Origin: Neophaeotheca triangularis
Lineage: Eukaryota
NCBI GenBank assembly: GCA_054600435.1
Contig: BAAIJX010000009.1
Location: 496,001 to 560,000 of the forward strand
Reading direction: 5' to 3'
Length of the DNA stretch: 64,000 nucleotides
Shown here: piece by piece, positions 37,560 through 50,558 of the stretch
Position numbering within the stretch: position 1 is the first letter of the stretch
How the letters are laid out: every line of letters begins with the position of its first letter
The notes under the pieces: generated by a model
What the model saw: the letters and a program-made list of their open reading frames with translations, nothing else
Database searches by the model: none
Told to the model about the DNA's origin: nothing
Program-made: the position numbers and the translations under genes

Positions 37560-39257
37560 TCAGACTTCCGTTATTACTACATCGTCGTCTGCGATTCTGA
37601 CTTTCTTCGTGCTGTTCGCAGCGTTGGCGCCGTTGTCGGCGGCGCCGGCGGTATCGTGAGCGGGTCGCTTGTGGGCGGTGGGGGCGCCTATGGTGGCAGT
37701 GGCGGCGTTGTTGGAGTTGGCGTTGGCGTTGGCGTTGGCGTTGTCGTTGGCATCGTCGGAACCGGCCGAGTCGTCGTCGTCGTCGTCGTCGTCGTCGTCT
37801 TCTTCTTCTTCAAACTCGTTCATCGCCTCACCCTCGCCGTCCTCATCGCCCCACCCGTCATCATCCTCCTCTTCATCTTCATCCTCATCCTCATCGCCAG
37901 CATCTTCATCCTCATCGCCACCCTCGTCCTCGTCACTGTCCCCCTCCCCTTCCTCCTCACTGCCCCCCTCCCCTTCCCCCTCCTCCCCCTCACCCCCCTC
38001 CACGCCACCACCCCCCTCCACAACACCCCTATTCCTCCCTCTTCCACAAGTCCCCCCCACCCCTCCCCCAGCTCCGACCAACTCCCCATCCCCCCACCCG
38101 GCAACCTCCCTAGCATCAAACTCCCGCTTCCCAATCTGGACCCCCATGACCCCATTCGCCGTCACATCGCCCCTCTCGGCGTCCTTGAGAATCGCTCTCG
38201 CGCGGTTCCGCGCTTCGAGTTTGAGAGGGAAATTGGAAATGTCTGAGGGGTTGAGGTTTTTGGAAACGTGGAGGTCGCGGAGGCGGGAGAGGAAGTGGGA
38301 TTGCGGGGTTTGTTGCGTTTGGGGTTCGGGTGTGGGGTTGGATGGCGGTTGGGTATGGTTTGTGGTGGTGGTGGGCTGGGTGTTGTTTGTGGTAGGAGTA
38401 GGGTGGGTGGCTGTGGTGGTGGGTCGCAGATTAGGTAGGGGGTTGAAGGTCGGGGTGTTGGAGTTTGCGTTTGAATTTGCGTTTTCGGGTTCGGGTTCGT
38501 TAGTGTTAGTGTCTTGTGCGCCTGCAGCAGCTGATGGGGAGGGAGAAGCATCAGGGTCCGAAGTGGGCACTTCGATTGCGGTTCGTGTAGTGGTTTGGGC
38601 AGGGTCGGTCGTTTTTTTCGTGGCGGCAATAATTGTGGTAGGATGGGGGCGGGCGTACAAGGGCTTGGCCATCAGGCGTGCTTGCGAAGAACCGAGTACG
38701 TCTACGTGGTAGCCCGAGCGATAGGGGTTGGCGGCTGTTCCGGGTCGCGCTATGTAGATTTGACTGCCGAGGTCCGTGTGCCAGTAGCAGCTGTAGAGTG
38801 CGTCGTTGAATTGGACGAGTGGATTTGTGGTGTGCAAGTCGAGGATCCTTAGCTTTTGGTTGGAGTTGGTGGACCCGCCATTTCCTGTGTCCTTGCCCTG
38901 GTCGTCGGCTGCTTGGGCGGCGGCAGCATCCGCATCCGTGACGAAGTGGAAGGTCCCATCTTCCTCGATAATGTCTTCGTCCTCGTCGCCGATTGGGACT
39001 TGCGCATGGAAGGTGCTCCTGGTTGCCGCGTAATTCTCGCCCTTCTTGTCCGTGGCTTGAGTCCGGTGGAGTAGAGCATCTGGGACATGGGTGGTGAGGT
39101 CGAGGGTAAAGTACAATTCCTCGGTTTCTTCCTCATCGAGCTCGTACTCCCACTCGTCGTCTTGGATGAAGCGCTGAGATGGCAGCTTGAGATCCGCATC
39201 CTTGAGCTTCGGCGGTTGAATGACATGGTGTGGGTTGCCAGAATTGTTGCCTCCCAT
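37560..39257 (-). CDS. TFIIIC subunit-6 (triple-barrel) domain protein with long acidic tail
   Basis: EWEYE..ETEELYFTLDL and LRILDLHTTNPLVQFNDALYSCYWHTDLGS match the pattern I recall for fungal TFIIIC_sub6 proteins. First ATG 39257; the true start is uncertain. Confidence 0.7.
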   Translation of the reverse strand: MGGNNSGNPHHVIQPPKLKDADLKLPSQRFIQDDEWEYELDEEETEELYFTLDLTTHVPDALLHRTQATDKKGENYAATRSTFHAQVPIGDEDEDIIEEDGTFHFVTDADAAAAQAADDQGKDTGNGGSTNSNQKLRILDLHTTNPLVQFNDALYSCYWHTDLGSQIYIARPGTAANPYRSGYHVDVLGSSQARLMAKPLYARPHPTTIIAATKKTTDPAQTTTRTAIEVPTSDPDASPSPSAAAGAQDTNTNEPEPENANSNANSNTPTFNPLPNLRPTTTATHPTPTTNNTQPTTTTNHTQPPSNPTPEPQTQQTPQSHFLSRLRDLHVSKNLNPSDISNFPLKLEARNRARAILKDAERGDVTANGVMGVQIGKREFDAREVAGWGDGELVGAGGGVGGTCGRGRNRGVVEGGGGVEGGEGEEGEGEGGSEEEGEGDSDEDEGGDEDEDAGDEDEDEDEEEDDDGWGDEDGEGEAMNEFEEEEDDDDDDDDDDSAGSDDANDNANANANANSNNAATATIGAPTAHKRPAHDTAGAADNGANAANSTKKVRIADDDVVITEV

Positions 39258-40895
39258 TGGATCGACGCTTTGGAAGTTGCCCTTGAATGTAGCCTTCTGC
39301 GCCTGTCTGAGACGGCCACGTTGAGGCACTGATTGTGATGATTGTGAGTTTGTTGCCTAAAGCCGTCTGGAAGGGAGTTTTCGGTAGAAGGCTCGATCAA
39401 TCATTCATACTTGTTGCGGGTCCACTTATTGATGAGTTTTGCGGATGTTGTTTCGCGGTGTTTGCGCTCTCCTACGTTGAAGTAGACGAGGCACTTGTCG
39501 AAAAGAGGGATTGGTCGCGTACTACTCGGGCTCTTGGATGCTATCAACCTTGGTCTTGTGTGATTTTCTCAAAAATGAAGGTCAAAGATTACCTATACCT
39601 TACTAGTGAAGTCGAAGTGAGTTGGAAGTGAAGCGGCAGGTCTACCTGCACCTGGGCAGCCTATCGGCAGCAATCCGGTCCGGCAGTCTGGACGGGTGTC
39701 GGGTACTGCCGTACTACCGCTTGTGTGACGGGCACTTTCAGCCTTGCCCGACGATAAGACACGCCCCGATAACGATAACGTTACCACCTGCAGGCACTCC
39801 GATAACGTACCTCGGGCCCTCTCTCCACCCTAGTATTAGTCGTCCGTCCCCCACTCGAGGGTATGGATAACCCGATGGAATGGATTAATCATCCATGCCT
39901 CCAGGCTCCAGCATCCGTTCCGCATCGTCTTCTTATTATTATTGCCTACTGTAGGTACGCCATGCGCACTCTAAGCTGGCCTCAGCTACAGCGCTACTGC
40001 AGCAGTCGTAAGCAGCCCGAGGGCTAGGGCTGGCTGGTACTGGCATCCTCGCGTCCCTGATCCTCCGGCTAGGCAACTACATAGAGTACCTTGGTATATC
40101 TTCAACAACCTCTCGGCTCTTCACTTCCCCCGAAACTTCAAGGGTTCAATCTCACATCATCATCATCATCATCATCGTCATCATCTCAGAACACCAGCAG
40201 CATCCATTTTCCTGCCATCCTCCATCTTGGCCAACCAACCGCTTTTCCATCTGACCGCTTCGGAGCCGAGAAACAACCTCATCCAGACCGCCAAGTAATC
40301 GAGTACCAGTACAGTCGGAAACTCGGGTTTCGTCTTGAATCCCGTCTTGTTCTGGAATTACAAACATCGCCGGCGTCATCCGGAAGACGAGACTGTACCG
40401 ACTGCCCTAGGAGGTACCTCCTCTCCATCGTGTCATCTTCATTTCCATCTTTCTTCTTTCCTGTCAGCATTCCGTCGGCCTCTCACATCCCCGGCATCCG
40501 CGCATTCCTCCCGGATCAACTGACGCTGCCCCACTAGGGCAGTGACTACTACCCATCTCCTACTCCTACAGCGGTCAGGCACCGTTCGTTACCGTTGATA
40601 CGCCGATTGCTACTGTCATCACTCCCCATCGTTCCGCTACCTATTCCGCCCCCCCCCCCCCCCGTCTGCTTCTCTTTCGCACAAGCATCCTCCCTCAGCC
40701 TTATCCGGTTTTGCAGCATCTTGATACCCACCACTGCGCATTATTAGCGACTGCGAGCGATCGTTTACTTCGTTGATCACTTTCGACATCACTCAAACCA
40801 ACGACAATACCCACTTATGCGCCGATAGCATACAACGATCGCGCAGTCGACGAAAACGAACGCTCGTCAAAAACAGCAACCTCGCCGATCCTCCC

Positions 40896-42704
40896 ATGAA
40901 AAGACCCGGCCGAAAATGCTTCGGCGGCTTCTTGGCTCTGTCCATCTGCTACATTGCGCTAGGATGGGGAGGTGTCCAACTGAACAAAGCCACGCCGCCG
41001 GATCAGCTGTACGAGAACGAGGCATGGATCGCGAGTGGAGAGAATTGGCTGGACAGGCAAGCTTGCCGCTGGATCGGCGTTTGCGGTAGCGGTCACTTCC
41101 TCAAGAGCAAGGAATGGAAGTTTGGGACGATGAGTGAGAAGACAAGTACTGCAGGACGGGACAACTCCGACTTCTGGACTTCGGGAAGTGGAGATATTGA
41201 TAGCTGGAGCGAGGAGGAGAGAAGCCAACGAGAGATACCGCAGTATGTGCTGGATCACGCGCCTTATGTCCATCTTTTCTCCGGGGAAGACTTTTGGCCC
41301 TGCGACATTGCAGATCATATCAATCACACGTCGCCTCACGTCAATTACACCACAATCGAAGAAATGCAGGACGACCGCAATCTGACCAACCTTGGTGAAC
41401 TTAACGACGTCGAGAGAGGGGCGCATGGTAGATATCTATACCTCCAAAGCGACGACGACGTGGAAGAGCGGCCCGATTGGCTAGGTGGAGAAAGCAATAT
41501 TCCTGATGTGCCCAAAGGCGGTCTGAATGTCGCTTGGCCAGGTCTTGAGGATTTGAAGAATTTCGATCTGGAGTCTGCCAAGCAAAACGCCTTGAGTGAG
41601 CAACTCGACATTGACCCCAAAGACTTTCCTACCGCCTCGGCAAGAGCTCCACTCGTAGTCAGCGAAGACGGCACTTGCGGAGGCAACAGCGGCTTCACGT
41701 GCAAAGGTAGCAAATTCGGCAAATGCTGTTCCATCTACGGCTACTGTGGCTCAAAAGAAGATCACTGCGGTCCAGCCTGTGATCCATTGTCTGGGAAATG
41801 CAACAACCCATTCGACCCCCCACAGCCTCCCCACATGGACCTCCGCAAGCGCGATCACAGGCTACGGCAAGCCCGCAACAGCTCCGACCAAGCGCCAACA
41901 GCAGGCGGACACAGCAGCGCCCCGGCCATGCTGATCGTCGTTCCCAAAGAAGACGGCATAGTCGACGCCTTCTGGTTTTTCTTCTACTCCTACAACCTCG
42001 GCAACCAAGTCTTCAACGTGCGCTTCGGCAACCACGTCGGCGACTGGGAACACACCGTCATCCGCTTCCAGCACGGCAAGCCGCGCCTCGTCTTCCTCTC
42101 CGAACACAACTTCGGCGAAGCCTACACCTGGCACGCCATGGAAAAATACCTGCCCACGCCCTCCGGCGGAAATCTTCTCTCCAGCCGCGCCAACGCCACC
42201 GCCGCCCGCCTCGCCAAACGCCCCGTCGTCTACAGCGCCACTGGCACCCATGCCATGTACGGCACCCCAGGACTTCACCCCTACGTCCTCCCCTGGGGCC
42301 TTCTCCACGACCAAACCGACCGCGGCCCCCTCTGGGACCCTCTACTAAACTCCAAATCCTACCTCTACAACCCGAACACCCAGACCCTCCTCCCCTCAAC
42401 TCTCAACCCCAGCGCGCCCGTCTCGTGGTTCCACTACGCCGGCCACTGGGGCGACAAGTACTACCCGCTCTCCGATCCGCGGCAATACAGGTTCTGGGGG
42501 CAGTATCATTACGTCAATGGGCCTACAGGACCCAAAGGGAAGAATCTAGGCCGTGAGACGGTTTGTCAGGGCAACGGACGGTGCAGGATCAAGAACTGGC
42601 TCGGTGACAGCGGAGAACGAGGGGGCGTGGGGAGCTTGGTGCCGCCCGAGGAGGATTTGGAGGAGGGTGGGTTGCCCGGCGGGAATGTCACTGAGAGTGC
42701 GTGA
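40896..42704 (+). CDS. Vps62/Tda6-like membrane-anchored protein containing a hevein (CBM18) domain
   Basis: N-terminal hydrophobic anchor; IPQYVLDHAPYVHL..EDFWP, DAFWFFFYSYNLG, FGNHVGDWEH, YSATGTHAMY, GHWGD, GPTGP; internal eight-Cys hevein motif. Confidence 0.88.
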   Translation: MKRPGRKCFGGFLALSICYIALGWGGVQLNKATPPDQLYENEAWIASGENWLDRQACRWIGVCGSGHFLKSKEWKFGTMSEKTSTAGRDNSDFWTSGSGDIDSWSEEERSQREIPQYVLDHAPYVHLFSGEDFWPCDIADHINHTSPHVNYTTIEEMQDDRNLTNLGELNDVERGAHGRYLYLQSDDDVEERPDWLGGESNIPDVPKGGLNVAWPGLEDLKNFDLESAKQNALSEQLDIDPKDFPTASARAPLVVSEDGTCGGNSGFTCKGSKFGKCCSIYGYCGSKEDHCGPACDPLSGKCNNPFDPPQPPHMDLRKRDHRLRQARNSSDQAPTAGGHSSAPAMLIVVPKEDGIVDAFWFFFYSYNLGNQVFNVRFGNHVGDWEHTVIRFQHGKPRLVFLSEHNFGEAYTWHAMEKYLPTPSGGNLLSSRANATAARLAKRPVVYSATGTHAMYGTPGLHPYVLPWGLLHDQTDRGPLWDPLLNSKSYLYNPNTQTLLPSTLNPSAPVSWFHYAGHWGDKYYPLSDPRQYRFWGQYHYVNGPTGPKGKNLGRETVCQGNGRCRIKNWLGDSGERGGVGSLVPPEEDLEEGGLPGGNVTESA

Positions 42705-43286
42705 GCTGTGAGGGTGGTGCGGGTTTTTTTTTTTTTGCGGGTTTCCGCTTTTGCTGGGCTTGGTGTTCCGGATCGTGAGGGGTTTTTGATTTTATTTTTT
42801 GGGGGGCGGGTTTTGGTCTACGAGTCTTTTCACGATTTTATTGATGTTGATGGATTGTTATGGGTTGCGCTGAAATGGGAACTAGCACGGGAGACGCGAA
42901 CGAAACTGATACCCTTCGTTTTTTTGTTTTTTTGTTTTTTCTGCGGACAGCGGCATTGAGTTTGCATGGTTAGGCAGCACGATGTCTCTTTTGGTGGCTT
43001 TCGGTGGGCGTGCTGGTTAGACTACCTTAAGCTCTCAACAGACTTGATTTCCATTTCGGTTTACGTCCGCTTTTCCATCGTTGTTGGATGTAGCTGTTGC
43101 GAGTCGAATATTCCTAAAACTCTGATTCTTGGGAAACGAGAAGATCTCGCTTCTGGGGTGGTCGAAGTATCTTCTCGACATTTCCACGAGATTACTTCAG
43201 CTTCTGTGGACTGGCACCAGATATATATAGGGTAGGGTACGCAAAAGGAGACCTGTGGAGAAAGACCAAAAAACAAAAAAGGGGGG

Positions 43287-43509
43287 AAAAAAAAGGATCG
43301 CATGGCGATCGAACGTATGCAGGGGCTCTAAGGCGCTTTTTGTACACAATATCTCATCTCCAAGAGTTCTTCAGTCGGCACGGAAGCGACCGCACTCTCT
43401 TCCCTCCCTTCGATTAAATATGCGTAGCCAGCTAGGAATCGAACCCAGGGCGAAGAACTGTCGGCACGGAAGCGACCGCACACATTTCTCACCACTGAGC
43501 CACGACTCC
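43287..43509 (-). ncRNA. tRNA-derived Pol III-type element (SINE-like, pseudo-tRNA or ncRNA)
   Basis: Minus strand: GGAGTCG-TGGCTCAGTGG (A box), CTGGG-TTCGATT-CCTAG (B box/T-arm), T8 run about 135 nt further on; anticodon arm is non-canonical. Confidence 0.6.
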
Positions 43510-43771
43510 ATTTGCTGCGGTTTTGGTATATGTGAGATCGCTGTCAGCTGGTATATATCCTTTGCTTGTCTTTCACTTGTGAAGATGCTGCTGCGGTGCA
43601 GACTGGAGCCTGGCTACCTCACTTCACCCCGTCCTCACTTCACTCCATCTTTTACCTCGCTACCTGTAGCCTAAGTGAGGCCTCTCAGGCAGGTGGGACC
43701 GGAGAGTATTATTTCGCGCTTTCTCTCTTGCTCTCCTGAAACTTTACAACAACCTCCATCTGCCACTCAAC

Positions 43772-44415
43772 ATGGCGGATAACGATACAGCCACGGCCGC
43801 GGCCACCACCTCCACCAACACCAACAACGACCCCGACGATGACGGCAGCCTCAGCCACGTCCACAGCAACGGCAGCAGTGAGCCGCTCCCGCCCGCGCCC
43901 CCTCCATTTCGTCAAGTTCTGCACCCGGCCGGCCGTCAAAGCCAAGTCGCCCGCCAGCGCAAGTACGAGGAGGAAGTGAAGAGAATCGCTGTCGGCCACT
44001 CGCACAAGGTTAGTTTCATTCTTAAATCTCAGTTACTTTGACGACGTAATTCGAAGCTGAACATTGCTTCACTCAATAGTTCACCGCAGACGAACTTGCC
44101 GCGATGAGGAAAGAGGACCGCTTCCTGGTCACGTGGTGGCCCGAGGATTGGGAAGCCCAGCTTGCTCGTCGCGACTGGGTGTTCTTTCTCCCGGCCGTTG
44201 GTGCCTCCCACGCCCTCCGCCGCGCCCTTGCTGTCGCCGCAAGGTTCACCAGCGACCCCGAAGAGCTGAAGGAGATTTTGGAGAGGTCTTGGGCCGCGAA
44301 GGTCGCCGGAAAGCCGAAGAGGCAGCTGGACCCGCAGCATGTGAAGGTGGCGGTTTCGGCTTGGCAGAAGAAGGGGTGGGCGGAGATTTCTCGTGATGGC
44401 TTGAAGATGGAGTAG
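43772..44415 (+). CDS. Orphan-family protein copy A (190 aa, 2 exons)
   Basis: Intron 44009-44079; exon 2 is about 55% identical (manual count) to copy B with the same intron position and phase. Confidence 0.85.
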
Positions 44416-45746
44416 ATGGGATGGAGGGTGGCCCCCGGGCCGTAAATACTGAAGAATCCTTTGTGGCCGTGTGGCCCCGTACCTTTGACCACTCTATCAA
44501 TTCACCCGATCGTTCTTGTCTACGCAATACTTTCGCCGTCTAGCTAGTGCCGGGAGATGGCAGACAACTGGAAGAATCGCGGATATAATATCGGGGCGCC
44601 ATGGTTCGAGTGCGGTAGCATGCTCCCGGCTCCTCTCAGATGGTACACTGGCCTAGTTCACCAAGCTCGAAGGGCGCCAGGCTTACGGGTCACTCGCTTT
44701 CAGTTGGAAGTGGCGTCCTCAAATCCCCGGGAACAGCGCCGGGAGTCTACACACGATCATGGATGTGTGTTGAAATAGTAGTGTGTGAATTGAGTCCGGA
44801 ATGAGATTCTTCTCGCCCAGTTTTTGTCCGTTCGCTGAAGTCCATGCCCCAACGGAGATGCAAATGGACATTTTGACATATTGGCGCGGTCTCCAAGCAA
44901 TCTGATATAGAGGGCGCGATAACTAAGTTATGGTATCATTTTTGTCCCTTCATCCTAGGGCAACAAGTACAACTCTTGCCGGATATTGTGCAGATGTAGT
45001 GGGTGAAAAGGCGAGCAAATCCTTTCACAAGGAAATCCACGCAACGATGACTCGAGTGTACCTCTAAACAGCAGCCGATCTTTTATGATGGGTCAACGAG
45101 ATCAGCATTGCCTTTTCGCGGAGTTTGAGATGGCCATGGTCTTGAGGGAAAGAATTTATGTGCATCTAGACAATGTGTAGTTGAGACGAGACGTCAAGGA
45201 ACTGCCCAGGTGATGTATCGATGCTGAGTGGGGCCGCTCTCGGCTCGTCCGGCGGACGAATCAGACCGACATCCACTTTCAACCTCACCTCCTACTCTCA
45301 CTTTGCCGCCGCTCTACTGAGTACTGTAATTTACATTCTCCTCTCGTTCGTGCCCGGAGGACGCTGGTTTTCAATTTCCAAGTTTCACCTGCTCCCGGTG
45401 AAGTGATCCATGCTCTAGAATTGGCCCTAGAAATGCCATCTGACCTCACTAAACCATTCGACCTGGTAACTAGACAGTAGTGCCTTCGGACACTCGTCGC
45501 TTTGTGCCGGAGACTGCTTATAGCGTTGTCAACGCAAATGTCTTGCAACTCTCGGCAGCATCATCAGACCGAAAGCTCTTCGACACTAACGAAATTTCTA
45601 CGGTGTTTCCCTCAACCTAGCACTCGACTAGAGAAGAGGGTGCCCTCATATCTTTCTCAAACCCGCCGGAGACAGGTTTGCCCCCAAATGGAACAGTCAT
45701 TATAGTACAATGATATGTACACTTTTGCTCACATGAACTCTCATTG

Positions 45747-46089
45747 CTATATACAGTCTAGTAAGAAGAACGAGCCAGGCTCTTCGAGCTGCTCGAGGCA
45801 GCCTGAAGGCCATAACTTCACCAGCCACCGGGCCTCCTTTTTCATCTCCGGTCGTGGGGAGTATCTGGTTTTCATGACCCTCCATCACCCGTCTGACCTC
45901 CTCGATGCACTCGCGCTCCCTGGTGACCTGCGTCTGACAGCCAAGGGGGTGCAGGTCGTTGTGGAGTGGTGGGTATGGGCTGGTAGGGAGGCAGAGTGTG
46001 AGGGAGGTGGTGGGGGGTTGGCCATGGGGGTTATCGTTGTCGAGGTCTGGCCTGTTGTTGACCTTGGCGAGAGAAGAAGCTTCCGCCAT
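45747..46089 (-). pseudogene. Intron-less, frameshifted, truncated copy C of the orphan family
   Basis: LHPLGCQTQVTRERCIEEVRRVMEGHENQ matches exon 1 of copy A; after a frameshift MKKEARWLVKLWPSGCLEQLEEPGSFFL matches exon 2, then a premature TAG. Confidence 0.75.
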
Positions 46090-46423
46090 TGCAGTATACT
46101 GGTCTGCCAAGGCCAGTGGAAGTGCGGCGTCGCTGCGAAACAGAAGATAATGGATGGCAAGCAAGAGAAAGATCTTGTATGGCTGAGGTGCGCAACCTCA
46201 CCTCAAAAAGGTGCGTTCTTACCACATTTAAGGTGAAGAGGGGAAGAAGGACGTAAGCCATGGGCACTGGGTTGAAGCAAAGCCAGCGCTTCACTGGGCA
46301 TTCAAATTCCACGCAGGGATGTAAGGTGAGCAAAAACACGAAACGCTCAATCGACGCAGATTGAACAAACTCCTCCAAACCATATAGTCAACCCCCGGCC
46401 AATTCCTCCATCAAAAGTCTTGA

Positions 46424-46631
46424 ACACGAATGGCCCAATGGCTGGAGCGTCACACTGGCTTAAGTTCATGTGACGCAACACCACCACCAGAGATCATCTC
46501 TACCGGATTAGACGGGCGTTCGAATCCGACTCTTGTAAAGTCAAACGCTGGCCTCTAGAGATTACTCGAGGATTCTCTTACCGTTCAATCGGAGTTTGCT
46601 ACCTTCACTCGTAAGAGTGGAGTTCCTTTTT
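46424..46631 (+). ncRNA. Second tRNA-like Pol III-type element
   Basis: A box TGGCCCAATGG at 46431; 8-bp stem GCGTCACA/TGTGACGC; B-box-like GCGTTCGAATCC near 46516; T5 at about 46627. Confidence 0.45.
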
Positions 46632-46902
46632 GCTTCTTTATTCTTCTTAAAAGAACAGCTCGAATGGACATGGAGGCTTAAGCGCGAGCTTCCATCTGCG
46701 CTTACACTTTTGAACAAATAGTGGCACAATTGCAAAAGAATGTCCTGCTGGTGATTGCCCGAACTCGACGTCTGCCAAGACTTCACTTGAGCTCACTAGT
46801 ACAATTGTACTCAGTCCAGCTGAGTCAGACCTCCCAAGTGTTAACTCTCTGCCTTTCCTCTAACCCTGCGCTACTACAAACACCAACCGTCTGCCACTCA
46901 CC

Positions 46903-47521
46903 ATGGCCAACAACGACACCACCATGGCGGATGCCACCAACAATACCAACGATGCCACCACCAACGCCAGCAACCCATCACTTCCAGCTACCATTTCGCT
47001 ACCTATTCGCAATATCCCAGGCGCAACCAGCGGTCAAATGCACGAGGACACCACCATGGAAGACCGCGCTGAGGAAGTGAAGGATGCCGCCAAAGGCCAC
47101 TCACACAAAGTAAGCTTCACTTTTCTACATGCTTGTTAGCTCACTTCACATTGCAGAAGAAGCTGACCGTTCGTTCACTACGCAGTTCACCACCGCCCAG
47201 CTTACCACCATGAAGAAGGAAGACCGCGTGCTCGTGATGCATTGGCCGGAGGACTGGGAAGCGCAGCTTGCCCGTGAGGACTGGGTGTTCGTTCTCGCGG
47301 CCACTGGCGCTGGCAACAATCTCCGTCGGGTTCTTGCCGTAGCGGCGACGTACCTGGACGCGCCTCAAGAGCTAAAGCGTATCCTGGAGCGTGCTTGGGG
47401 CGAGGAAGTTGCTGGGAAGCCGAAAAGGGCTCTGATCCCATTCCACGTGAAGTCGGCGCTCACGAGTATGATGAGGGAGAACTGGAACGAACTTTCCAAT
47501 GCTGCGTTCATGGATGCTTGA
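46903..47521 (+). CDS. Orphan-family protein copy B (180 aa, 2 exons)
   Basis: Intron 47110-47185; shares KEDR.LV..WPEDWEAQLAR.DWVF and ELK.ILER.W...VAGKPKR.L.P.HVK.A with copy A. Confidence 0.85.
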
Positions 47522-47606
47522 GAGGCAAGCGGAACACCCGTTCGTAATTCGGTGTTGTCCTAGCAGGGTATATCAACAAAGAGCTTCTACATAGCTACAA
47601 AGAAAA

Positions 47607-47632
47607 CAGCATCAGCATCAGCATCAGCATCA
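47607..47632. repeat. (CAGCAT)4 microsatellite between convergent genes
   Basis: Directly visible. Confidence 0.85.
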
Positions 47633-47664
47633 CAATCATACAACCCCTCATCACCCACTAAAAC

Positions 47665-49669
47665 TCAATGGAAATCCGCCTTAACGCTCCCATACTTAAC
47701 CCCATCCACCCTCAGCTCAAACACCAAATTCGCACTTTCAATCTTCATATGCAGCTCAAAGTCCAGGTTATCAAACTCGACGCCTTTGGTCGTTGTGAGC
47801 CGGGTGAAGAGCGTTTTCGGCACGGCGTTGAGGTCGGTAGTCAGGGTGCAGACGTCGGTGAGACTCTTGCTGTAAGCATCCGGAGGCTCGTCGAGGTCCG
47901 TGCCGATGAGGTCGTCTTCGACGACGAGGGATTGCCCCGGTCGGAAGTTCCGCGTGTAGTGGAAACTTATGGGCGTTTCCGAGGAGATTGGGGTGCCCTG
48001 GGGTTGTTAGTGTGAGGACTTCTCGTCTCTTTTCAAGAAGAAAGATGGCTAGTGGTGTAAGGCTTACCTTGGCGATGTGCCATTGCATGCGGTCGCTGAC
48101 CATCCACCTCTCCCATAGTGGGCTCCAGTAGCGGTCGCTGACGGGGTGCTTGGCCTCGTCGAAGACGGTTGCGTAGCTGGTGCCGTAGTGCCAGCGGCTG
48201 CGACGCTTTTCCACCATGTTGCCTTCGACGCCCTTGAGCACCGCGCCTCGCACGACTGAGGTCCAGGCGTTCATGGGTTGCAGGACTTCGACGCTCTGTG
48301 CTTGTTGATTGCCTAGCTCGTGGGTGGGTGTTTCGGAATAGGGCGGTGGCGGTGAGACGTTAAAGTAGTCTTTCAGTCGCGTGTAGAGGTAGTTGCTCTG
48401 CCCGAAACCACCGACCAATATTATGCCGCTGACTGCTCCTCCTTTCGACTTGATGGCATTGACCTGACCCTCCACCAACTGGATGACCTCCTTGATGACA
48501 GGGTCGAAGATGGACTTGACCTGCGCCGCCGTCATGATTAAGAAGCCGCTGTCCAGACCGGCTTCCTCATTATCCGGCAGCCCGGGAAACGGCACGTTGA
48601 CTTCAGAATGCTCTTCCTCGTTGAAGTTGCGCTTGATAAACTCCTCAAAGTACTTCAAGCCCATCATCCACGTCTTCGGCTTTTTCTCTCGCATCATGGT
48701 ATACGTCTCCATTCCCAAACGCTGCTTGACGTGCTCCTCGAATCGATAGTTGAGGAAAGCCGAGCCACACAGCCCACCAGTGCCAACCGCGCTCTCTTCG
48801 ACCCTCAAAGGCGATAGCTGTGTGACCTTGTACGCGATCAGATCCACCGTCCCGCCTCCAGCATCACAAACAACGAAGTTCGAGCCTACTTTCAGGGCCC
48901 CTGGCTGCATAGTCTTGAGCGTATGTACCGCCGCGGCCTCGGGCTCGCTGATCAACTGCAGCTTTGCCCTCTCGCCCATGCCAGCTCTTTCTGCCGCCTG
49001 CAACGTCGCATTCTTCGCCGCATCGCTCCAAACCGCCGGCACGGTGAGGATAAACTCAATCGGGGTCGAAGCAATAAAACTCTCGCCGAACCGCCGTTTC
49101 AGCGTTTCCATTGTGTGCTCGTAGACTTTGGTCAAGTAGTCGGACACGGCGTCCATGACGGTTCTGTCATACTTCCGCAAAGCCGTGGCCGTCTCGAGAG
49201 GGGAGACGAAGTGAGGGAGTTTCTGGTTACGGTCGAGGAATAGCTTGATGCAGCGTAGTCGCGGCTCTTCGGGCTTGAACTGGAAACCCCATCGTATCTG
49301 GCGCGGGAGCGTGGCCGTGTGGTTCAGCTGCTCGGGGGTCAGGTCTGCTCGCGGAGTGGTTGCTGCGGCGCCGTTGGGCTGCTCGACCAGTTCGTAGGCC
49401 ACTTCGCTCGGGACTTTGTCGCTGGTGATGCCATTGCCGCCCGGCCAGGCCTTGATAATGTCGATGTCCTCCGGCGTTGCGCTGTACGTGAAGGCCACAC
49501 CGGAGTAGGTCGTACCGAAGTCGAGGCCCACTACTATCTTGTCTTGCTGGCGCGAAGGCGTCGATGGCTCGCTCTCTGCCATTGTCGCGCCGTGGCTACC
49601 CTTCGATGCGCCATTGGTTTTCTGCGCTGCACTCTCCGCTGCGCTGCGGATTGGAAGGTTTTGAGCCAT
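47665..49669 (-). CDS. Atypical Hsp70-like actin-fold ATPase (HSPA12-like, 2 exons)
   Basis: VGLDFGTTYSG, LTVPAVWSD.AK, ISEPEAAA, CDAGGGTVDL, LVGGFGQSNYL; intron 47998-48067; short C-terminal domain ending VKADFH, with no lid or EEVD. Confidence 0.93.
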
Positions 49670-50558
49670 TCTCAGTATTCCCCGACTGTCTCTGCACCTA
49701 CGATCGCTGCTGTGGTATGATAGATCGTTTCTCAGTGGGAAACACGCTCCTGAATGGCAATAGGAAATTCGCCTCTAGTTAGTTACAGCAGTGTATTGAA
49801 GACCCAATGGCTCTCCGCGAGACCGAAATGGTTTGCATCAGGCTCCAACCGTTGCCAACACCAGCTTTGCCGGAAAAGTGATGAAACTTGTCGAGCGTCG
49901 GGTTATGAAACAAGAGATCAATAGCGTCGAATGGCTTGCCTTGACGGAAGAGAAGAGCCACGCTCGAGGTTTCCTGTCACTTCCTACCTTATCTTACTTT
50001 CTGTATCACACCGTGCCTCTTCGGAGTCCGACGAAGTAGCTTGAGCTGTTTGGTACGGTACCCAAGTAGCTCGAGCTTCGAGAACGTCAGGGCGATCAGT
50101 AATAATGCTAAATGCGGGTATCCGAAATCGCCGAAAAGCACGGCAGGGTCGATCCCGTGGATTTCGCAAGAGTCTAATCAATCAGAAACCGGCAGGCTGA
50201 ACCAGTAAACACGATTCAGTCGAGAGACATCACTCCGAGAAACGGCATACGGCATACGGGACCGTCGTTTCGTCAACAGTAGTCCGTTATCACGAGACGA
50301 TGCCGAAGCAGTACAGCATTATCTGAGCAAGCTTGCGATTCAGTAGGTCGGACCCGTTTCGTTTTGTCTCCCATTCGAAACACTCTCGAGGCACAAGCAT
50401 CTGTTGCATAGTCCCAGCTGTTTCGCGCATACTTGATATTGCCCTAGCTGCCTCAACATCCGCCGAGAAATATAAACACAGCCGTGAATGCCAATGGCTG
50501 TGGACTCTGCCTGAGTTCAGAAGACGCAGTAAGCACCACAACCCTTCCTTTCTTCCAC

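Follow-up and report, generated by a model that had tools for sequence, protein, structure and literature searches.

Two candidate RNA polymerase III units in an island of orphan genes

A stretch of 64,000 nucleotides (nt) from the fungus Neophaeotheca triangularis (contig BAAIJX010000009.1, forward strand, positions 496,001 to 560,000; hereafter the window) carries two short units in which paired internal promoter boxes, of the kind found in transfer RNA (tRNA) genes, are followed by a hairpin and an oligo-T run. Element 1 lies on the minus strand at 43287-43512 and element 2 on the plus strand at 46424-46631. Both are located in a 5-kb island (approximately 42705-47770), together with two intact genes of an orphan protein family (copies A and B, whose proteins carry the name of this species) and an intronless fragment of the same family (copy C). 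The reading preferred here, held with about even confidence, is that the elements are two unrelated tRNA-derived units of the RNA polymerase III (Pol III) type, comparable to low-copy short interspersed elements (SINEs), in a lineage-specific and insertion-tolerant island. Element 1 is single-copy, and element 2 belongs to a dispersed repeat of three copies.

In element 1, the 7 nt ahead of the A box start at 43509. The A box (TGGCTCAGTGG, 43492-43502) and the B box (GGTTCGATTCC, 43435-43445) are both perfect matches to the consensus and are spaced 57 nt apart, and the B box is located within an intact T arm (CTGGG/CCTAG, five pairs including one G-T). As read from the sequence, the D stem retains 3/4 pairs, and the acceptor ends are unpaired (3/7, two of these wobble). 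A repeat search and a blastn self-match identified a 22-nt direct repeat with a period of 86 nt, whose copies are at 43460-43481 and 43374-43395. On the minus strand, the first of these forms a hairpin resembling an anticodon arm (GTCG/CGAC, with a C-C mismatch and the 7-nt loop TTCCGTG), and the 8 nt that follow each repeat copy on that strand (AGTTCTTC and GAAGAACT) are mutually complementary. The body ends in a terminal hairpin (GATCGC-CAT-GCGATC, 43296-43310), positioned 1 nt ahead of a run of eight T residues (T8, 43287-43294) that is the putative Pol III terminator. The T8 sits in a homopolymer-rich zone (42720-43295) where long runs are dense on both strands: a long one of T residues is near 42725, those at 42918-42945 are T-rich, and those at 43266-43294 consist of A and G.

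Element 2 likewise has a tRNA-like head, a body, a terminal hairpin, and an oligo-T run. Its A box (TGGCCCAATGG, 46431-46441) and B box (CGTTCGAATCC, 46517-46527) have one mismatch each and are spaced 86 nt apart. The T stem is broken (2/5 pairs) and the D stem retains 2/4 pairs, and the sequence shows acceptor-like pairing of 5/6 (ACACGA/TCTTGT), which flanks the head at the places expected of a tRNA. Both the minimum free energy and the centroid folds contain a hairpin at 46447-46476, with an 8-bp stem (GCGTCACA/TGTGACGC) and a 14-nt loop, that occupies the position of the anticodon arm; a long insert holding a short palindrome is also present. The terminal hairpin (CACTC-GTAA-GAGTG, 46606-46619) is 7 nt ahead of a run of five T residues (T5, 46627-46631), again a putative terminator. 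Two other identities were considered for this element. It was rejected as a miniature inverted-repeat transposable element, as the repeat search gave no terminal inverted repeat within it, and a mitochondrial origin was judged unlikely, the base composition being roughly balanced by eye.

A sequence scan bore out the positions and features that a preliminary description, made from the letters of the window, had assigned to both elements. Each has the anatomy of an internal-promoter (type 2) Pol III unit derived from a tRNA. Under the preferred reading, each would consist of a 5' tRNA-related head that keeps its A and B boxes and would no longer fold as a cloverleaf, then a body unrelated to tRNA, and finally the 3' hairpin and oligo-T run as the predicted Pol III stop. 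By the general scheme of type 2 promoters, the boxes would be the binding site of TFIIIC, and Pol III, together with TFIIIB, would initiate a few nt ahead of the A box and terminate at the T run, to give a predicted RNA of approximately 205-220 nt. The elements, presumably of retroposed origin, would have settled in the island, or element 1 perhaps decayed there. They may also insulate, or interfere with, the promoters of the neighboring family copies (the divergent ones of A and C, and that of B).

Promoter boxes and layout compared with chance

Both strands of the window were scanned for the consensus boxes (A, TRGCNNAGTGG; B, GGTTCGANNCC) with at most one mismatch allowed. This yielded 29 A-like and 12 B-like sites, among which only two A+B pairs are 25-120 nt apart, namely those of elements 1 and 2; that of element 1 is the only perfect pair in the 64 kb. 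For comparison, 300 windows of matched dinucleotide content were simulated. A perfect pair occurred in 0/300 of these, so the boxes of element 1 are far beyond chance, and by its sequence element 1 is evidently tRNA-derived. At least one pair with up to one mismatch per box occurred in 76/300 simulated windows, and two or more in 15/300, such that the boxes of element 2, taken alone, are within chance.

The layout downstream of the boxes is more discriminating. In both elements, no run of four T residues occurs for approximately 205-220 nt until the oligo-T is reached, the T8 and the T5 each being the first run of at least four; counted from the first base of each unit, the oligo-T is reached at 208-219 nt. 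A perfect hairpin of at least 5 bp ending 0-8 nt upstream was found at only 4 of the 79 runs of five or more T residues on the two strands of the window, and two of these four are the ends of elements 1 and 2. In addition, only approximately 6% of positions have a T run of at least five residues 150-260 nt downstream. The combination of a rare hairpin and T run, at a shared distance and on the right strand, therefore places the common layout well beyond chance and rescues element 2 as a real unit.

Tests for tRNA genes and known RNA families

ARAGORN detected no tRNA genes in the window with either default or introns-allowed settings. Lowered thresholds returned 2, 22, and 112 calls, which were rejected because nearly all have introns of hundreds to thousands of nt. 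One of the 22 calls made at the 90% threshold (43422-43819, with a 320-nt "intron") overlaps element 1, and was likewise rejected since it merely reuses the T arm of that element. The Rfam tRNA model gave no match in the window at E<=10, even when the elements were searched alone as stretches of 311 and 321 nt, and Rfam 15 (including 5S, U6, 7SL/SRP, RNase P/MRP, and the small nucleolar RNAs) gave no matches in the window at the gathering score. Weak matches to sR40, sR2, sR5, ZNFX1-AS1_2, mir-22, FTX_1, and SNORD48 (E 0.63-9) are far below gathering and were dismissed as chance. The mir-22 match arises because the complementary stretches of 8-9 bp adjoin the 22-nt repeats of element 1, and the spurious C/D-box matches sR2 and sR5 are explained by a (CAGCAT)n-type microsatellite at 47597-47643, directly 3' of copy B. 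On these sequence tests, neither element is a tRNA or a member of a known RNA family. The earlier label of "tRNA-like" thus applies to no more than the boxes and some of the arms.

Copy number and comparison of strains

Contigs of four sequencing runs were compared with positions 41500-49500 of the window at a likeness of at least 80%. In run X1, a possible source of the window itself, one contig spans 41500-46460 and another 46577-49500, and the assembly graph branches between them. X1 contigs of 21,293, 7,415, 129, 41,284, and 61 letters match parts of 46373-46634; these pieces are 81-97% alike, with 2-18 other letters and up to eight gaps, and have single-copy depths of 120-135. The depth summed over the three contigs that cover 46470-46534 is 415.8 (148.8 + 131.7 + 135.3), and that at 46613 is 382.3, which indicates that three copies of element 2 are present in the genome. 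The other copies are 81-93% alike to the window copy and are located elsewhere in this genome, on contigs of 21 kb, 7.4 kb, and 41 kb. In one of them the likeness sets in precisely at the A box, with a loose end before 46431, and two contigs cease to match at 46634, 3 nt past the T5. For another copy, the match breaks off at 46373, but the 10-mer of 46345-46354 recurs in its loose end, so that its likeness extends over 80 nt or more ahead of the A box. Strain X2 shows this pattern down to the small gaps, and the other copies are thus orthologous loci in both strains. A scan of metagenomes with a 24-nt core of element 2 gave no matches. By comparison, element 1 is on one contig only (depth 128.4), and no second copy was found at >=80% likeness.

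Both elements are kept in strain X2. Within element 1, 2 of 223 nt differ between X2 and the window, as do 3 in the 183 nt upstream of it and 5/406 over 43287-43692, a region comprising element 1 and the promoter of copy A. Beyond the terminator, the 69 nt past the T8 are replaced, with the alignment kept as far as 43287, and 13/125 sites differ at 43093-43217. The replacement consists of 43218-43286 being swapped for 65 unrelated letters, and five letters are also absent in X2 at 42725. The two remaining runs contributed little. Run X5, which has the same organism label, matched only in two short pieces of the Hsp70-like gene at >=80%. Run X3, labeled as a different organism, includes two contigs of 2-4x depth that are 98-100% identical to 42091-42241 and 45845-46299. 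These reflect either a low-level presence of this species or carry-over, and their depth is too low to interpret.

Weighing of the SINE-like reading and its nearest alternatives

Several observations weigh against the SINE-like reading. As noted, the boxes of element 2 are not in themselves beyond chance (those of element 1 are perfect, and those of element 2 have one mismatch each), and neither predicted fold is unusually stable relative to shuffled sequences (z -1.25 for element 1 and -1.43 for element 2). No target-site duplication beyond chance was found at either element: direct repeats flanking the elements reach at most 7 nt for element 2 and 6 nt for element 1, and control geometries gave repeats of at least 7 nt in 116/300 cases and of at least 6 nt in 255/300. 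Old insertions can, however, lose their target-site duplications. The 3' ends consist of a hairpin with T8 or T5, not of an A-rich or simple-repeat tail. The upstream DNA shared by one copy of element 2 is more readily explained by duplication at the DNA level than by a retroposed Pol III transcript, and element 1, without a second copy, may be a decayed tRNA gene instead of a retroposon. Finally, no more than 3.2 kb separates the two elements, although the window extends over 64 kb and has no true tRNA gene. Pure chance explains this clustering poorly, and the only account of it offered here is that the island is tolerant of insertions.

One alternative, considered unlikely although it retains some weight, is that the elements are functional, lineage-specific Pol III genes for non-coding RNAs (ncRNAs), independent of the orphan proteins, that simply occupy free intergenic space, with element 2 belonging to a small multigene family. 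In each, a promoter head resembling a tRNA would precede a structured RNA that finishes in a 3' hairpin and U-tail. Such genes would account for a non-random architecture common to units that are unrelated in sequence, and for the likeness of the window copy of element 2 being confined approximately to the region from A box to terminator, as in multi-copy Pol III genes. The retention of both elements in X2 also points this way, as element 1 differs at far fewer sites than either the intron of copy A (6/71) or the region beyond its own terminator. However, the divergence from X2 is equally low in the 183 nt upstream of element 1 and is thus unspecific, and the copies of element 2 have diverged by 7-19% and contain many small gaps, more variation than a constrained RNA would be expected to show. 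The lack of any Rfam match and folds that are no more stable than shuffles argue against functional RNAs as well.

A second alternative is that the elements have no common nature. Element 1 would then be a tRNA gene that decayed in place and gained an 86-nt internal partial duplication, element 2 an unrelated repeat with boxes that arose by chance, and the hairpins and T runs coincidental, with neither unit transcribed by Pol III. For element 2, the chance frequency of the boxes and the poorly paired T and D stems are as this alternative would have it; for element 1, so are its single-copy state, the direct repeat of period 86, and the position of the T8 in a zone full of homopolymers. Against it, two of the four hairpin-preceded T runs in the window are found 205-220 nt past the only two A+B pairs and on the correct strand, the likeness of element 2 to one of its copies starts at the A box and ends just past the T5, and the acceptor-like pairing of element 2 is at tRNA-expected positions. 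A lack of common nature is likewise considered an improbable but not negligible explanation, and two unrelated SINE-like units remain the preferred one.

The orphan protein family

Copy A encodes a predicted protein of 190 amino acids in two plus-strand exons (43772-44008 and 44080-44415), and its translation equals P0003 (hypothetical protein MBLNU230_g8457t1). Copy B, also on the plus strand (exons 46903-47109 and 47186-47521), encodes 180 amino acids and corresponds to P0004 (hypothetical protein MBLNU230_g8458t1). Each gene has one GT..AG intron at an identical codon boundary, and the exon-2 products are 59% identical. An HMMER search of 1.84 billion representatives at E<=0.001 returned six proteins: A, B, the cluster P0005 (E 2e-14), and three repetitive proteins (P0006-P0008). 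The latter were rejected as family members, being matched in only 3-8 short stretches. The P0005 cluster has two members, of which the named one (g8086t1, 184 amino acids) is from N. triangularis and is encoded on a different contig. A search of the "longer" length class of proteins gave no match, and a metagenome scan with the family protein alignment gave 251 pattern matches, none of which was confirmed as a relative. The earlier designation as an orphan family is therefore upheld, and on present sequence evidence the family is one of three intact paralogues, all in one species and two of them in the window.

The alignment of four family sequences has 30 invariant columns, every one of which is in the C-terminal domain. 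In the AlphaFold model of the family protein, the mean predicted local distance difference test score (pLDDT) is 65, and the C-terminal helical domain reaches 70-89. Pfam contained no convincing family for the orphan proteins (one match, E 0.065, failed the cut-off), the ESM Atlas yielded no usable match, and Foldseek against the PDB returned nothing at E<=0.001 for the family protein model. The best score in the wide setting of VIA-align was Z 4.2, to small helical bundles, a range that the tool grades as common. As far as the models go, the structural matches appear weak and generic, and nothing in them points to RNA binding by these proteins.

Copy C is a pseudogene on the minus strand (45750-46110, from tblastn) that is intronless, frameshifted, and truncated at its 3' end. 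Residues 1-84 of P0003 align to 46110-45841 in a single frame (40% identity, E 6e-12), and a weak alignment in a different frame places residues 88-119 at 45845-45750. Since the alignment spans the exon junction unbroken, the intron is absent from this copy, which looks like a processed copy (derived from complementary DNA) or the result of a precise intron loss. On reading the sequence, no poly(A) tail was seen 3' of copy C.

Copy A differs between strain X2 and the window at 11 exonic sites (4 synonymous and 7 non-synonymous), in addition to the intronic sites given above. Thus, constraint on this gene appears to be relaxed, or selection to be diversifying, between the strains, and on the sequence copy A is a coding but fast-evolving gene. 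One of the X2 changes, in codon 44149-44151, converts a family-invariant Trp to Ser. Separately, the ACC/AAC-rich stretch at 43803-43841, which encodes the Thr/Asn-rich N-terminus of A, also matches another contig, as loose ends in both X1 and X2 show; it is a coding repeat of low complexity that recurs at another locus.

Relationship between the elements and the orphan genes

Both elements are divergent from a family copy: 263 bp separate the start of element 1 (43509) from the ATG of A (43772), and 335 bp separate that of element 2 (46424) from the ATG of pseudogene C, which is on the minus strand (46089). It is conceivable, as a long shot, that the elements represent an undescribed class of fungal Pol III transcript (a tRNA-like head, a body of approximately 100 nt, and a 3' hairpin with a U-tail) that has been repeatedly recruited to the divergent promoters of young orphan genes, as RNA partners or as TFIIIC-bound switches or insulators. 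In that case, the other copies of element 2 would mark further such modules, including one at the third paralogue.

The preliminary description suggested that the duplicated unit may be gene plus ncRNA. Comparative analyses argue against this. A local alignment of the two elements scores 16 against a shuffle mean of 16.2, and 169/300 shuffles are as good, which bears out the earlier remark on how little sequence they have in common outside the boxes. The gene-element spacers of A (with element 1) and C (with element 2) also lack similarity (score 19 versus 18.4, with 125/300 shuffles as good). Between A and B, only 26 nt upstream next to the ATG are alike (1/300 shuffles as good), and a DNA-level match between the two genes is limited to the region that starts 24 nt ahead of the ATG and reaches into exon 2 (70-74%). 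With unrelated elements, box spacings of 57 versus 86 nt, and gene flanks that cannot be aligned, a duplicated unit of gene plus ncRNA is not supported. Orientation is not uniform either: the elements are divergent from A and C, and element 2 is co-directional with copy B, its start being 479 bp upstream of the ATG (46903) and its end approximately 270 bp away. A blastn-short comparison of both elements with the window produced, within 43510-47521, only self-matches and a single 11-nt match at 45729-45739, which falls just outside the aligned part of copy C. Neither antisense pairing nor the toxin/antitoxin-like relation suggested earlier is borne out, as the elements have no complementarity of 11 nt or more to the family genes.

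The ages of the two components differ as well. The gene copies are 70-74% alike in coding DNA versus 81-93% for the copies of element 2, indicating that the repeat is younger than the gene duplication, unless it is strongly constrained. Copies of a dispersed SINE had been named in advance as evidence against a cassette, and the contig pieces and depth point to three dispersed copies of element 2. Under the preferred reading, the elements would have arrived independently of the gene duplications, without any gene-plus-RNA cassette; the fallback reading offered at the outset, in which insertion history brought the genes and the tRNA-derived sites together, is the better one. A cassette in which each orphan gene and its divergent Pol III RNA form one functional and duplicating unit (an RNP, a toxin/antitoxin-like pair, or a mobile module), of which only the boxes and architecture survived, draws on the divergent arrangement being seen twice, on the architecture common to both elements, on the presence of the only A+B pairs of the window in the 5-kb family island, and on a genome that has three copies of element 2 and a third paralogue on another contig, but it is very improbable given elements and gene-element spacers that do not align, the location of the nearest relatives of element 2 on other contigs and the much greater divergence of the genes, the position of element 2 relative to copy B, the missing complementarity, and proteins with no Pfam family and only generic modeled structural matches.

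Genomic setting of the island

The island is located between an open reading frame (ORF) with chitin-binding and Vps62-like features (40725-42704, plus strand) and an Hsp70-like ORF (47771-49774, minus strand). The neighborhood is ordinary and gene-rich, with genes for an alternative oxidase, DnaJ, Mediator Med13, a CFEM protein, and a sugar transporter, as well as a TFIIIC subunit, a glycoside hydrolase, and anthranilate synthase. Of the ORFs in the window, 20 long ones were scanned, and none of them matched a transposon-related Pfam family. The ORF with the TFIIIC subunit 6 triple-barrel domain (PF10419, E 3e-14; 37560-39356, minus strand) is approximately 4 kb from element 1, which is probably a coincidence, although TFIIIC would bind the boxes. 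Within the chitin-binding/Vps62-like ORF, a segment of approximately 55 nt (42025-42079) recurs on another contig of the same genome, as judged from loose ends on both sides in X1 and X2 and from a rise in bin depth from 128 to 150.

Comparison with known systems

The elements share features with several known systems. As in nuclear tRNA genes and pseudogenes, A and B boxes are at tRNA-like positions and an oligo-T follows, and element 1 retains a full T arm and most of its D stem. Unlike tRNA genes, neither element has a cloverleaf or is recognized by ARAGORN or Rfam, and the terminator is approximately 125-135 nt past the tRNA-like part. The A-B spacing is approximately 44 nt in an intronless class I tRNA, which is shorter than the 57 and 86 nt observed here.

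Units that join a tRNA-like head to further RNA provide a second comparison. The yeast RPR1 and snR52 genes are Pol III genes driven by a tRNA-like leader, and the tRNA-miRNA (microRNA) units of murine gammaherpesvirus 68 combine a tRNA-like head with hairpins. With these, the present elements share a 5' A/B module, hairpins, an oligo-T, and a predicted transcript of approximately 200 nt; the likeness is one of layout only, as there is no sequence or Rfam match. A third comparison is with the yeast ETC (extra TFIIIC) sites and tRNA-gene insulators, which similarly have B-box sites in intergenic positions upstream of divergent protein-coding genes. In essence, ETC sites have only a B box, and their orthologous positions are conserved, whereas the elements described here have the full layout of A box, B box, and terminator, and their conservation is seen in one other strain.

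The closest parallel is with the AfuSINE2 families of Aspergillus fumigatus. These are low-copy, tRNA-related SINEs of 140-493 bp that are derived from different tRNAs, are mutually dissimilar between families, and do not fold as cloverleaves; five of the eight families have been shown to be transcribed, and target-site duplications of 4-14 bp flank the elements (PMC5063351). The shared features are a comparable length, families that derive from different tRNAs, a 5' tRNA-related head with A and B boxes (degenerate in AfuSINE2) followed by a tRNA-unrelated region, a low copy number, dissimilarity between families, the absence of a cloverleaf, and insertion in gene-rich regions. In contrast to AfuSINE2, the present elements have no target-site duplications beyond chance and end in a hairpin with an oligo-T, and element 1 has no second copy.

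Implications

Full-text searches of a limited collection of literature yielded no specific account of SINE or Pol III-type elements from Dothideomycetes, nor of Pol III ncRNAs with tRNA-like features from filamentous fungi. If the preferred reading is true, this little-studied Dothideomycete, a black yeast-like fungus, provides an ordinary but clean case of Pol III-type elements that are low in copy number and tRNA-derived. A single lineage-specific island would then bring together young orphan genes, Pol III-type relics, and a processed-looking pseudogene, with implications for where compact fungal genomes accommodate new genes and small mobile elements. Should the elements also be transcribed and act on the divergent promoters, the island would provide a compact natural system for the interplay of Pol III and Pol II (RNA polymerase II) at newly born genes.

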